Shown piece by piece: positions 15,018 through 31,172 of a stretch of 64,000 nucleotides of DNA; the first letter of the stretch is position 1; every line of letters begins with the position of its first letter. Source of the DNA: an uncultured Chloroflexia bacterium (GTDB lineage Bacteria; Chloroflexota; Anaerolineae; JAAYZQ01); the NCBI GenBank assembly GCA_963700285.1, contig CAVOXA010000014.1, forward strand, positions 192,001-256,000, in the 5' to 3' direction. The translations under genes were made by a program, and so were the position numbers. Below the pieces are notes generated by a model. It had not been told where the DNA came from. It saw only the letters and a program-made list of their open reading frames with translations, and did not search any database.

Positions 15018-15046
15018 TTGTGTTCTGGCGCGAATCAGGCTATAAT
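15018..15046 (+). promoter_or_regulatory. Putative promoter of the defence operon
   Basis: TTGTGT-17 bp-TATAAT, about 140 bp upstream of the SNF2 start. Confidence 0.5.
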
Positions 15047-15186
15047 GGGAACCAGCCAGTCCGGGGAGTCCTGTTTCGCGGACAGCCGCCTTCCAGACCC
15101 ACCATCTCTCGTATCGCTTCGGCGAGGAAGACGCAGATCCCCCTTTCAGGCACCTCGAGCAGCGTTGCACCCAGGAGTGGTTGCGC

Positions 15187-26179: not shown

Positions 26180-29100
26180 TACCTTCACGTCCTGGCCCAG
26201 CACCCAGGCCTACGGACCTACGTCCATACTTCCGAGTTCGAGACCTCCACTATATCCGACTATCGGTCACCGGCCACGGTGGAGCAGCCGCTCTGTGCAC
26301 GATGTCCACTGTCCTCGGCAACCAGCAACTTGGGAAAAAAATTCCCTCCCTGACAACTTCACATGGGCAACGGGTTGTCTGTCACCACGTCTCATTGCTC
26401 ACGGAGCAGCGCGAAACCACACAGCTCGCACATTCCCACCAGCACACAGTAAAGCATCACGATGGTGCGCCCGCATCGGACAGGTACAAGGGAAGGCGAC
26501 GGGCGGGTGAACCTGTTCCGCATCACATTCGTCGTCCTCGGTGGTGCGGCCTCAAGGCAGGTGGACCTGCGCCGTCGTCTCCCGATGGACATCGGCAACT
26601 GGCCAGATCGACGACGACTTTGCGCGCTGGCCAAGCCGCTCGGCTTCGGCTTCTATCCTCTTCGTCGCCGACGCGGTGCTGCTGGTGGCTTCGCCGATCC
26701 AGCGCGCGCGCGAACGACTACAACCCGGAGATCGGCCAGCGAGCGATGCGCTACGCACCCGGTGGTGAAGCGGCTGTGCGTGCTGCTGGAGCTGCTCGAC
26801 AACTGGGCGTGTTTGCGCGTCCGGGCGTGCTGCGCTTTCTGGTGCTGGACGAGGTGCACACCTACACCGGCAAGCGCGGCGCCGACGTGGCGGCGCCTCA
26901 TCCGCCGGCTGAAGCAGCACACCAGCACCGACGGGAGCGCTGCGCTGCATCGCCACCAGCGCCACCGTCGAGAGCCAGCCGGCGGCGACCGGAAAGGCGA
27001 GGACGCGAGCCGCGCATCGCCGATTTTGCCACACCGCTCTTTGGCGAGCCATTCAGCCGGAGGACGTCGTCACCGAGCAGTACGCGCCCCTGCCCGACGA
27101 CCTGCCGCCCCTCACCCGCGCGCATCGCCGAGGCCCTGGCCGACGGCCCCAAGACCCTCCACCAACTGGCTCGCCGACCTGGACGCCACCCCCGACAGAT
27201 CCAGCAAGCCCTCTCCAATCTCCAAGCTGCCAAGTCTACCAGCCAGTCTCCCGTCCCCAAGCTCCACGCCTTCTTCTCCCAGGGCCGCGCCATCACCGCC
27301 TGCCTGGCCCCCGAGGGACCGCACCTCAACGACCGGGGCGAGATCACCTGCCCCGCCTGCGCGACGCGGGACGGGCGGGAGCGCCCGACCTTCCCCTGGT
27401 CTTTTGCCGCGCCTGCGGCCAGGAGTTCTGGAGCGTGGCCGTGGACGAGGCGGGCCGGCTGCACCCGGCCGAACTGGACGCGGTGGACGTGCCGGGCGGC
27501 TGGGCTACCTGCTTGCCGGCCAGCCCGACGATCGAGCTGCCGGAGCACTGGCTCGACGCCCACGGGCAAGGTGCGCGGCGGCACGCGGGGCTACACCGAC
27601 GTGTGCCGGAGCCGCACACCGTCTGTCCCGATCTGCGGCCGGCTGGACGGCGACTGCGATCACGCAGAAGCGATGCCGCGTGACCGTTCCTGCCGGCACC
27701 CTTTCTCTTCTGCCCCACCTGCGGCATCGTCCACGACCGGCGCTCGCGCGAGTACAACAAGCTCTTTACTCTTTGGCTCGGTGGGCCGCTCGACCGCCAC
27801 CGACGTGCTGGTCAGCGCCCAGGTGCAGGCCCTGCCCCGGGACGCGAACAAGGTGATCGCCTTTTCCGACAACCGGCAGGACACGGCGCTGCAGGCGGCG
27901 CACATGAACAGCCTGCACAACCGCTTCACCTTCCGGCGGACGCTGTACACGGCGCTGCGGGAGGGTAGAGCCACGTGGTGGGCGAGGCGGGCGCTGCGCA
28001 GCGCACGGGCGGCTGCTGTTCGAGGCCAGGCGCGGCACGGCGTGCTGCCCGAGTTTCGCACCAGCCAGCGCATCTTCGGCCGGGACGGCAGGCAGAGAGC
28101 GCGCTACCAGCAGGTACCTGGACTTTGTCATGCTCCTGTGGGAGCTGGGCGGCACCCACCGGCGCACGCACCAGAACCTGGAGGACGTGGGGCTGCTGGT
28201 CGTCGGCTATGACGGCCTGGACGCGTGGCCGCGGCGGACGACTACTGGGCCGACGTGCCGCACATGGCCGACCTGGATGCCGACGCGCGCTACGACGTCC
28301 TGCTGGGCTTGCTCGACCTGATGCGCAAGCGCGCCTGGGCCATGCGACCATCCTCGAGCCCTTCCGGCTTCCGGACGGACGTTCTGGACAAGTCAACGAG
28401 GAGGCACATCCACGACGAGCTGCCTTTCGCGGCCCCATCGGCTACAGCGACGACAGCGAGTACACAACTCTCGTAGGGCGCGGTGTACCGCTGACCGGCA
28501 CCAACACCCAGCCCGTGGTCTGGATCAAGCGCGCTTCGGGCGTTGGGCCTGGATTACCGGCACACGCCGACGCCGTGGTCCTTCCGCCGCGTGGCCAGAG
28601 CTGGGCGACCCCGGACGCCGAGTTCCTGGTCGGCACACACGTGCAGCGGCTACGGGCGAGCGCTACGACCTGTGGATGTCTACTCCTGCCGATGCTGTCG
28701 GCCCTGGGCCGACCCGGCAGCGGAGCAGTGGCGCTGTCCCAAGTGCGGCACGGTGCATCACTTCCGGCCCCTGCGGGTCTGCACCGGCTCCACCTGCCGC
28801 ACGACGCTGATGCGGCGAGGACCTGGCCGGGAACTATTTCCGGCAGGTCTATGCCACACCGCTGGGCGAGGCGGTGCCCGTCCAGGCCGAGGAGCACTCG
28901 GGCCAGGTGCCGCGGCCAGGAGCGGCGCGGAGATCGAGGTGCGCTTCCGCGAGGCCGAGGCTCCGCTCAACGTGCCTCATCTGCACGCCGACCATGGAGC
29001 TGGGCATCGACATCGGCCACCTGAACGCGGTCACTCTGCGCAACGTGCCGCCCAGCCCCTCCAATTACGCCCAGCGGGCCGGGCGCGCCGGGCGGAGCGG

Positions 29101-31172
29101 GCAGGCCTCGCTCATCACCGTCTTTGCCGGCGTCGGCGCGGCCCGCGGCCCGCACGACCAGTACTTCTATCGCTTTCCGGAAAAGATGATCGCCGGGGCC
29201 AATCGCCCGCCGCGCTTCCGCCTGGACAACCGGCCCTGATCCCGGCCCACATCCACGCCCTGGTGCTGGAGACGCTGGGGCTGACCGGGACGGAGCGGCT
29301 GCCGGGCCGGCCCATCGGAGCTGCTCGACCTGGAGAGGTGGGATCTTCCTCTCTATCCCGGCTGGGCAGCAGCCTACCGGGCGGGCATGGACCGCTACTT
29401 GGCCCGACATCGCCGACGCGGTGGGCGAGGCCTTTGGCCGCCGAGATGAGGCCGATATCGACTGGTTCGACGCGCCTTTGTGGACGAGGCGAGTGCGGAG
29501 CTTTGTGGATGCCCTGGACGGGCCATGGACCGCTGGCGGGCCGAGTACGAGCGGCTGGACGAGGAGCGGGAGGAAATGAACCGCCTCCTGGGACGCGAGG
29601 GGGCCGGCGACCGGCCCTGAACCGGCGGCGGATCGTGGTCGAGGGCAAGACGGCAGGCCATGCGCGAGGGGCAGAGGGACTGGTACCTGTACCGCTACCT
29701 GGGCGGCGAAGGGTTCCTGCCCGGCTATGCCTTCCCGCCGCAGGCGGCGAGTCCTGTCCTTCGACGAGCAGGAGGACGAGCTGGCCCGCGACCCGGCCAT
29801 CGCCCTGACCGAGTACGCGCCGGGCAATTTCGTCTACTACCGCGGCGCACGCTACGAGATCACCCACGGCCGGCCCCGCACCCGCGGCGAAAACCTGCTG
29901 GCCTTTGAGAAGGTGCTGATCTGTCCTGAGTGCGGCACGGCCTACCTGGGCGCAGGACGTCCAAGCGCGCTGCCTGTGCCTGCTGCGGCGGACTCGTTCA
30001 CAGGCGTACACCCCATCCAGCGCGCTCTGCAGATGCCCGACATGGTCGCCCACCGGCGCACGTCGCATCACCGCCGATGAGGAGGAGCGCATGCGCCGTG
30101 GGTACCTGGTCGAACCACACTACCAGATGGGAGACGATGTCCAAGCCTACCAAGTCTCGCACGGCGGCCAGGCCGCCTTCGAGTTGACCTACGAGCACAA
30201 CGGTCGCATTATCGTCGTCAATCAGGGCACACGACAGACCGAGCAGGACAACGAGCCGCCAGGCTTTACCTTCTGCCGGGCCTGCAACCGCTGGCTGGTG
30301 GGAAAGAATGCCATTGAGGAGCATTCCGGCGAGGGCGGCAAGTGTCCCCGGCACGCGCGAAGCGAGGACATTCTGGGCGGCATCTATTTGTTCACCGACT
30401 CCCGCAATGATGTAGTGACCCTGGTTTGTCCCCAGCCCGGCGACGTGCCTGACGCCGACGCTTTCTATACAACGCTGCTGCACACATTCAAGCAGGCGCT
30501 GCTCATCACCATGAACCTGGATGAGAGCGAAGTGGGCGGTTTCCTGGCGGCGGTGTCCGTTGGCGAGGAACGCCAGCGCCTCGTGCTATACGAAACAGCC
30601 GAGGGTGGCACCGGCGCCGTCGAGTCCCTGACCGATCCCCATCGTCTGCTGGCGGTCATCCGGAATGCTCAGGAACTCCTCCATGAGGACGAGCCGGAGC
30701 AGGGCTGCGAGAAGGCATGCTACGAATGCCTCTGCTCGTTCTACAACCAGCGAGACCACGGGCTGTTGGACCGCCATCTGGTGCTGCCCTTCTTGCGCTC
30801 GCTGGAACACGCTGACGGTTGAGGCCATACAGGCAACCATCGGCCCAACACTGGCCGAGCTGGAGGCTCAGTGCCAATCGGACCTGGAGCGGCAGGTGCT
30901 GCAGAGCCATCCACGATCGTGGCCTGCGCCTGCCAGATGCTGCGCAGAGAATCCTCTACGATGGAGATGAGCCGATTGCCATCGCGGACTTCTTCTACGA
31001 GCCCCGGATCGTGGTCTTTGTCGATGGCTCGCCGCATCACCAGGATTACGTCCAGGCTGCTGATGACTGGAAGCGGCGCCGGCTGGTGGCCAGAGGGTAC
31101 CGGATTGTGGTGGTGCGCGGGGAGGAGATGGAGGCTGGGTTGAGTGACCTGGCTTCGCGGCTGATGAGTTGA
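26180..31172 (+). CDS. DEAD/DEAH helicase fused to DUF1998 and a C-terminal DUF559/Vsr-like nuclease domain (heavily frameshifted; start approximate)
   Basis: [88 protein letters not shown]1998 [52 protein letters not shown]. Confidence 0.85.

Follow-up and report, generated by a model that had tools for sequence, protein, structure and literature searches.

A probable ARMADA Type I locus with a RelE-UvrD fusion lying between armB and armC in an uncultured Anaerolineae-like genome

ARMADA systems are defined by a BrxHII-like helicase, a PglX-like methyltransferase and a YprA helicase with a fused Vsr domain (Bell et al., 10.1101/2025.09.15.676423). Type II, represented by armABCD of E. coli NCTC 12900, ATCC 8739 and EDL933, is experimentally protective; the preprint finds each of the four genes, along with the Walker motifs and NPPW, to be required for a protection that does not involve cell death (10.1101/2025.09.15.676423), and the deletion results are repeated in PMC13463889. 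Type I, as the preprint describes it, has three core genes that include a YprA-DUF1998-Vsr fusion and no PLD nuclease, and some of its loci, in many archaea and cyanobacteria, show an A-B-C order (10.1101/2025.09.15.676423), all of which are features of the locus described here. The preprint labels the Type I Vsr domain 'active?', and Anaerolineae are among the listed Type I hosts. Among papers outside subscription journals, this preprint and PMC13463889 were the only literature on ARMADA that we found. Class 1 DISARM encodes its helicase and DUF1998 protein as separate genes together with a PLD nuclease, and it protects more strongly where cognate sites lack methylation (10.1101/2021.12.28.474362). 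Druantia lacks an SNF2-methyltransferase pair; its type III terminates in PLD domains and depends on DruH, and DruE binds single-stranded DNA and is a 3'-to-5' helicase (10.64898/2026.05.13.724758).

The window, a stretch of 64,000 nucleotides from an uncultured bacterium (contig CAVOXA010000014.1, positions 192,001 to 256,000), had been described in an initial annotation as holding a compact block of three co-directional genes. A motif search placed every motif named there on the + strand, and the large, co-directional genes for an SNF2 helicase, an NPPW adenine methyltransferase and a YprA helicase-DUF1998-Vsr protein were each collinear with one intact homologue, which bears out the trio itself. 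The block is not a compact one, because toxin-antitoxin-like ORFs and a RelE/ParE-UvrD gene are interspersed among the three, and the locus consists of four large genes and small toxin-antitoxin genes (Table 1). It lies on an insert of about 20 kb that is absent from a genome of the same genus (G001), where the flanking window segments 12134-14454 and 34702-36462 map 277 bp apart (G001:C6). No long (att-like) terminal direct repeat was found within 13000-33000, no tRNA lies near the island (the sole tRNA of the window is at 424-499), and scans for promoters and terminators gave no signal clearly above chance.

Table 1. Features of the locus, in window coordinates
Feature	Position	Strand	Evidence
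Accessory interval holding the system	14575..34700		Absent between the same flanks in G001; left junction, near the position given, read by eye from the flank alignment
armA: BrxHII/DrmD-like SNF2 (RapA-like) helicase, frameshifted in the assembly	15187..18163	+	Pfam, PADLOC, homologue L045
Small Phd/YefM-like + UPF0175-like ORF, antitoxin-like insert	18170..18661	+	Weak Pfam matches (E 0.001 and 0.009), below cut-off
armB: PglX/DrmMI-like N6-adenine methyltransferase, frameshifted in the assembly	18720..23000	+	Pfam, PADLOC, motifs
Antitoxin-like ORF, VapBC-type pair with the PIN ORF	23037-23285	+	Same pair in L017
PIN-domain ORF, VapBC-type pair	23288-23684	+	Pfam PIN_3, weak
RelE/ParE-UvrD fusion, ArmD-like architecture, in low-quality sequence	23850..25800, ends approximate	+	DNA alignment
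armC: YprA helicase, STAS-like N-terminus, CxxC modules, DUF1998 (MZB), Vsr/DUF559-like tail	25860..31172 (approximate start; low-quality sequence over the first kilobase)	+	

The reading frames of the trio are heavily interrupted in the assembly. Frameshift-aware alignment of each gene to one intact protein, with an aligner that penalises stops, counted 83 frameshifts over the three genes and no stop on the chosen paths: 11 in armA (15202-18160 against a 973-aa SNF2 homologue, 55% identity), 30 in armB (18732-22913 against the intact 1349-aa methyltransferase of L017, 76% identity) and 42 in armC (26213-31163 against an 1814-aa helicase-DUF1998-Vsr homologue, 60% identity). If these frameshifts were real, the locus would be a decayed, non-functional island. 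Such decay would account for the contrast between the trio and the nearly clean flanks shared with G001, which show 0-11 gap openings per 1-2.4 kb, and for the fact that the 1-2-base indels are not enriched in homopolymer runs (0.16 against 0.18). On the other side, the substitutions in armB are skewed to third codon positions (0.30 against 0.10 and 0.07), the catalytic motifs are intact, and 3 kb of very heavy, deletion-rich noise stands beside sequence conserved at 85-90%. Because these three features are explained better by a long-read consensus of thin coverage than by decay, we regard decay as unlikely and infer that the source organism carries intact copies of the genes. For both ArmC and the RelE-UvrD protein, the Walker A motif lies in unreadable sequence.

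The domain content of the first two genes agrees with a BrxHII/RapA-like SNF2 helicase and a PglX-like adenine methyltransferase with NPPW, as in ARMADA. In armA, Walker A lies at 15571, DEAH at 15884-15898 and motif VI at 17023, and the raw frames match SNF2-rel_dom and Helicase_C (Pfam); the best PADLOC model is DrmD, and the homologue L045 scores 432 bits on NCBIfam DrmD, under the 610 cut-off. In armB, DPAAGSG lies at 20430 and NPPW at 21242, the raw frames match an MmeI/Eco57I methyltransferase (Pfam), and the best PADLOC model is DrmMI. The antitoxin-PIN pair that follows armB recurs in L017 (64% and 69% identity).

The third gene joins a YprA helicase and DUF1998 in one polypeptide, which is also a defining feature of ARMADA. 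It encodes DEVH at 26845-26859, motif VI at 29072, the DUF1998 Cys cluster at 30706-30735 and a Vsr-like tail at 30984-31028; its raw frames match MZB (DUF1998) at E 2.8e-9 and, weakly, DUF559 at E 0.005 (Pfam). The initial annotation had read this gene as a fused helicase-DUF1998-nuclease, and we take the fusion to be real because intact homologues, with which the gene is collinear, are mostly single proteins of 1,650-1,900 aa. Its Vsr residues align with those of E. coli ArmC and of Type I proteins listed in Table S1 of the preprint, consistent with a predicted C-terminal nuclease domain of Vsr type. The ARMADA helicase further has a BrxA-like helical insertion behind RecA1, a beta-barrel and MarR-like zinc modules; in the window, CxxC motifs stand where they would be expected, and a weak winged-helix match comes just after RecA1. 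A STAS-like extension is weakly detected at the N-terminus (9 of 10 homologues score above their own shuffle mean, best z about 5). DruE models are the closest in PADLOC for ArmC, and DruE sequences the closest solved ones; an intact homologue scores far higher on DruE (382 bits) than on DrmA (58 bits), a pattern also reported for ARMADA (10.1101/2025.09.15.676423). PADLOC matched no other Dru protein in the 40 frames of the locus, which has armA and armB, and Druantia was set aside.

The unreadable stretch between armB and the legible part of armC had been left without a gene. We found there, by alignment of DNA, a fourth large gene, which removes the earlier count of three components. The RelE/ParE-UvrD gene of L016 aligns end to end (window 23783-25810 against gene positions 2-2209) with z of 10.6-11.9 under three scoring schemes and 4.2 under a fourth, and when 321 neighbouring ORFs were aligned to the gap, the top three were all RelE-UvrD genes. 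All 20 homologous proteins scored above their shuffles. Of seven pieces into which the gap was cut, five mapped collinearly, one broke the order and the last did not rise above background; of the six RelE-UvrD genes aligned to the gap, two (L023 and L035, the latter partial) showed almost no signal or none. The gene was missed by tblastn and genome search and was seen only by indel-tolerant alignment, and its recovery means that a whole gene can be retrieved from an unreadable stretch of an assembly. In the L016 protein, both a ParE_toxin and a UvrD domain pass the cut-off, and the protein matches the archaeal RelE 1wmi. With E. coli ArmD, RelE-UvrD shares its architecture and 26% identity along 522 aa (E 4e-35), yet it stands on another branch.

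This filling of the gap bears on a reading of the locus as class 1 DISARM with fused drmA and drmB and with drmC hidden in the unreadable sequence. Class 1 DISARM does share a homologous SNF2 helicase, adenine methyltransferase, YprA-family helicase and DUF1998; ArmA and ArmB match best to the DrmD and DrmMI models, and a gene of about 950 aa with a PLD domain occupies the same slot in two relatives. However, RelE-UvrD and the beginning of armC occupy the gap, and neither DrmC and PLD models nor the gap alignments found drmC in the gap or nearby, those models matching other contigs only. Separate drmA and drmB genes were not found either: the window has one fused protein that is DruE-like rather than DrmA-like and ends in a Vsr domain. 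We therefore consider class 1 DISARM extremely unlikely. The absence of DrmC noted at the outset thus stands, as does the view of a DISARM-related, restriction-like defence locus with a fused helicase-DUF1998-nuclease.

Because its architecture equals the published definition, we assign the locus to ARMADA, and membership in the Type I family is highly probable. Table S1 of the preprint gives the label 'ARMADA Type I helicase' to contigs of seven related loci (L043, L044, L055, L056, L058, L059 and L060) and also to protein P0009 (BSZ35_02445). In a tree from a quick search without bootstrap, with a single Type II reference on a long branch, the window helicase groups with all seven labelled loci in a clade of 40 rows (SH-aLRT 99) and with L055 in one of 21 rows (support 100), and E. 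coli Type II ArmC and DruE lie outside its clade. The gene order is A-B-C, the reverse of the C-A-B order also counted as Type I. Of 18 genome accessions looked up in the 34,868 rows of Table S1 that were covered, 12 were absent and one was listed with a different contig. The initial annotation had proposed an undescribed three-component system. PADLOC 2.0 and NCBIfam hold no matching system model and no NCBIfam cut-off was reached, so that ARMADA Type I is missed by both; against the proposal, the 2025 preprint and its Table S1 apply the name ARMADA Type I to the same architecture and to direct homologues. Since ARMADA Type I matches the locus, the claim of novelty falls, and we give it next to no probability.

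Given four genes that include RelE-UvrD, the locus could instead be read as ARMADA Type II, with which it has in common the A-B-C order, the homology to ArmD described above, and a UvrD/GajB-like helicase, about 700 aa long, that carries a fused RelE-like domain. In contrast, Type II ArmC is distant from that of the window, with about 2,100 aa and extra C-terminal domains, whereas the window armC carries one Vsr domain and then ends, and its helicase groups with listed Type I proteins. Membership in the Type II clade, with its extra C-terminal nuclease-like domains, was thus rejected (by a tree with one Type II reference), and so was the Type II placement of armD after armC, as the ArmD-like gene of the window precedes armC and belongs to another branch. 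Type II is very unlikely. We conclude that the locus is very probably ARMADA Type I (armA, armB, armC, in reversed order) with toxin-antitoxin genes and RelE-UvrD between armB and armC, and that it likely conducts a non-abortive restriction like that of BREX or DISARM. The RelE-UvrD gene before armC, the toxin-antitoxin genes inside the operon and the STAS-like extension of ArmC are not mentioned for Type I in the accessible preprint text, and its supplement and figures may show Type I variants. Three RelE-UvrD-bearing loci looked up (L018, L023 and L046) were not among the rows of Table S1 that were covered. Outside subscription journals, the preprint was the sole relevant match for ARMADA Type I with RelE-UvrD in Chloroflex literature, and DUF4325 with a RelE/UvrD fusion or with defense was absent among the literature matches listed. 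The locus is a modest variant of an already named system, to which it contributes a further member, carried in the Anaerolineae-like genome of an uncultured bacterium.

By analogy with Type II, DruE and DISARM, we propose a mechanism that we consider reasonably probable as a whole. ArmB would likely methylate adenine in a host motif, although the accessible preprint text does not report methylation of host DNA by ArmB (10.1101/2025.09.15.676423). Sensing, which the initial annotation had assigned to the helicase polypeptide, may involve the methyltransferase: we infer that ArmB takes part in detecting incoming DNA whose motif is unmethylated, because ARMADA II needs every gene and the methyltransferase NPPW. 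ArmA, the SNF2 motor, would act on the ArmB-DNA recognition complex by translocating or remodelling it, and ArmC would load where single-stranded DNA is exposed, unwinding in the 3'-to-5' direction and cutting through its Vsr-like domain, so that phage replication would be stopped and the cell not killed. RelE-UvrD may work with ARMADA Type I as the similar armD does in Type II, as a helper helicase, or it may be independent cargo, cleaving mRNA after its helicase has sensed infection.

Whether RelE-UvrD is a working part of ARMADA Type I or independent cargo was addressed through 58 related loci. Conserved synteny of the core genes, as posited at the outset, was borne out: the methyltransferase lies upstream of the helicase in 20 of the 58, and 15 that show both upstream genes have, like the window, the A-B-C order. 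In favour of cargo, among the 20 loci that show both genes, armB and armC are immediate neighbours in 10; in relatives the slot between them holds Mrr, McrB/C-like genes, RecQ and DprA, PLD proteins, NERD-UvrD and toxin-antitoxin pairs, which resembles a hot spot; the same RelE-UvrD family occurs without a downstream armC in L078, L084 and L081; and its branch is apart from that of E. coli ArmD. Against cargo, RelE-UvrD stands directly before armC wherever the two are linked (6 of 58 loci and the window), on two separate armC branches, and three of four class-level genomes with the gene place it there. The N-terminal extension is present in all six RelE-UvrD-linked armC genes and in 6 of 28 others, although kin among these are not independent. 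An independent genome (G409) carries armA, armB, cargo, RelE-UvrD and armC on one contig. An order-level search gave no new RelE-UvrD locus (the gene was in 1 of 23 genomes), and a metagenome scan gave 8 loci only, all short. Taken together, cargo has slightly better than an even chance. More tentatively, and with a distinctly lower probability, the locus may represent a four-gene Type I subtype of Anaerolineae that acquired its own RelE-UvrD independently of the Type II ArmD, docks it through the STAS-like domain of ArmC, and exchanges the DUF1998 module of ArmC by recombination; the armC of the window would then be a mosaic around position 30,000, unless the assembly is chimeric there.

If such a four-gene subtype exists, ARMADA evolution would have arrived repeatedly, and convergently, at a second helicase armed with RelE. 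Close Type I relatives with and without RelE-UvrD offer a natural comparison for the role of the helicase and its RelE domain, and the same comparison bears on the division of Types I and II by three versus four genes.

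The locus is a known anti-phage system, ARMADA Type I, as described in the available text of Bell et al. 2025 (10.1101/2025.09.15.676423). It looks undescribed because an NCBIfam search reached no cut-off and PADLOC includes no ARMADA model. A genome scan yielded 58 related loci, and among the rows listed from Table S1 (10.1101/2025.09.15.676423), the contigs of L043, L044, L055, L056, L058, L059 and L060, as well as protein P0009, are labelled 'ARMADA Type I helicase'. Of 18 genome accessions checked against those rows, 5 matched on the contig itself, 1 was listed with a different, likewise Type I contig, and the remaining 12 were missing from them. 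In a quick IQ-TREE phylogeny of 60 rows, which omits three duplicate loci and proteins below 1,250 aa and carries SH-aLRT support only, the window helicase falls within a 40-row clade (SH-aLRT 99) containing all seven Type I-labelled loci, and E. coli type II ArmC and DruE (ATCC 8739) lie outside it on long branches. The methyltransferase gene lies upstream of the helicase gene in 20 of the 58 loci, armA and armB both do so in 15, and the C-A order occurs in 2, with many contigs too short to judge. The initial annotation's claim of an undescribed system, which it had itself tied to the lack of a match to a named one, thus does not stand. In the parts of the literature searched, we found no description for ARMADA Type I of a RelE-UvrD gene before armC or of an N-terminal extension of ArmC; both are apparently undescribed for this type, and the locus is therefore a modest variant.

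Frameshifts occur throughout window 15.0-31.2 kb, and the SNF2, methyltransferase and helicase motifs named initially were all found in the same order. Raw reading frames (41 in Pfam, 40 in PADLOC) identified an SNF2 helicase (top PADLOC model DrmD), an adenine methyltransferase (top models DrmMI and type IIG) and helicase frames with DruE as top models, followed by MZB/DUF1998 and then weak DUF559. Frameshift-aware alignment showed that each of these three large genes corresponds to one intact homologous protein; the alignments cross 11, 30 and 42 frameshifts, respectively, and meet no stops along their paths. The DUF1998 region has 414 longer homologues, and in most of the best 120 of these the DEAD, Helicase_C and MZB domains sit together in one protein of 1,650-1,900 aa, which indicates that the proposed helicase-DUF1998 fusion is no artefact. 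The N-terminal part of ArmB resembles, by eye from the alignment, what we take to be a restriction-enzyme-type domain that lacks the usual catalytic motif. The small ORFs between the large genes are, by Pfam, one of Phd/UPF0175-like type and two that form an antitoxin-PIN pair, and such a pair also lies 3' of the methyltransferase gene in the related locus L017.

The flanks are shared with the same-genus genome G001 almost without indels, and the system sequence is noisy. Substitutions in armB are biased to the third codon position (0.30 vs 0.10 and 0.07), and insertions make up 37 of 49 one- to two-base indels, without a tie to homopolymers. Our own reading is that the noise reflects a thinly covered consensus; less probably, the frameshifts are real and the locus is decayed. 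ArmC is also a mosaic, in that its body is sister to P0100 (support 99), whereas the segment ending in DUF1998 takes a different place in the tree, with 79% identity to L016 and P0001 and only ~50% to P0100 and kin. Either recombination (a module swap) or an assembly chimera would explain this pattern.

The low-quality gap between armB and armC holds a fourth gene. In L016 (G002), the closest relative by C-terminal identity, a 711-aa ParE/RelE-UvrD gene lies directly 5' of armC, and indel-tolerant alignment matched this gene end to end (positions 2-2209) with sequence in the gap (z = 10.6-11.9 in three scoring schemes and 4.2 in a fourth, vs codon shuffles). The RelE-UvrD genes of L018, L028 and L046 gave z ~3-7 in most schemes, and those of L023 and L035 (partial) gave little signal. 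Among 321 related-locus ORFs aligned to the gap, the top three were RelE-UvrD genes (excess 80, 46 and 40; background median 3, sd 9), and a PLD gene ranked sixth with an excess of 27, inside the background tail. At the protein level, 20/20 RelE-UvrD homologues scored above their own shuffles and covered nearly their full length. The armC start follows with an N-terminal extension, for which the signal is weaker than for the RelE-UvrD gene; the extension is called 'STAS-like' from a DUF4325 match of P0002. A DrmC gene in the gap was ruled out, as these two features fill it, and matches to DrmC and PLD models fall only on contigs C9 and C1, which upholds the earlier statement that DrmC is absent. 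For the RelE domain, a match to solved RelE proteins was obtained (1wmi, E 6.5e-7), and in the family alignment it retains conserved arginines and a tyrosine that are presumably catalytic.

The fourth gene shares its architecture with E. coli ArmD, the RelE-UvrD protein of Type II, but identity is 26% over 522 aa, and it belongs to a broad family (704 clusters at E 1e-30) that a FastTree phylogeny of 44 sampled rows places on a different branch from E. coli ArmD and a Trueperaceae ArmD-like protein. A RelE-UvrD gene lies directly 5' of armC in 6/58 loci, on two armC branches, and one contig of G409 carries armA-armB-cargo-RelE-UvrD-armC. The N-terminal extension is present on 6/6 armC genes preceded by RelE-UvrD vs 6/28 others; kin among these loci are not independent. 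The RelE-UvrD gene may be an integral part of the system; however, it occurs in only 4/401 class-level genomes (before armC in 3 of 4), it is found without armC in L078, L084 and L081, and varied cargo occupies the armB-armC slot in relatives. The genes without armC (L078, L081 and L084, the last on G376:C89) belong to the same family, which may constitute a one-gene defence system. In L017, L025, L029, L030, L046 and L055, the defence cargo in this slot or 5' of armC comprises Mrr nucleases, McrB/C-like genes, RecQ-HEAT-PRTase plus DprA, PLD proteins of ~950 aa, sacsin plus NERD-UvrD, and TA pairs; the ARMADA locus L011 (G017:C91) has a 1,568-aa EAD10-NACHT-HEAT gene between armB and armC.

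In G001, both flanks of the interval are only 277 bp apart, which shows the system to be part of an accessory stretch of ~20 kb. Two intact genes within it showed no relation to ARMADA.

Positions of features within the window
Feature	Window position	Context
SARP/AfsR-like TPR regulator, two MlrC-like (microcystinase family) genes, AHL-lactonase-like gene	4237-12022	upstream of island
N-terminal part of ArmB	18720-19400	
Low-quality gap	~23,750 to 26,800	holds RelE-UvrD gene and armC start
Alignment to L016 RelE-UvrD gene	23783-25810	in gap
armC start with N-terminal extension	from ~25,870	
ArmC segment ending in DUF1998	29900-30800	
35-base REP-like repeat, many copies in G001	31190-31230 and 34835-34869	directly after armC; near right junction
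Helix-hairpin-helix (DUF4332-like) protein with internal repeats and Ig-repeat/LysM protein, both genes intact	31493-34595	inside accessory interval

According to the available text on ARMADA II, defence requires all four genes, Walker motifs and NPPW, and cells stay alive (10.1101/2025.09.15.676423); the gene deletions are repeated in PMC13463889. DruE, the closest solved family to ArmC, is described as binding ssDNA and unwinding 3' to 5' (10.64898/2026.05.13.724758), and unmethylated sites are described as enhancing class 1 DISARM (10.1101/2021.12.28.474362). That armB is deletable yet required suggests that ArmB may help recognition and not only mark self. Based on these precedents, ArmB would both mark the host's own DNA and single out phage DNA that lacks the mark; ArmA would act as the translocase, and ArmC would unwind and cut, so that the locus would provide a non-abortive, restriction-like defence.
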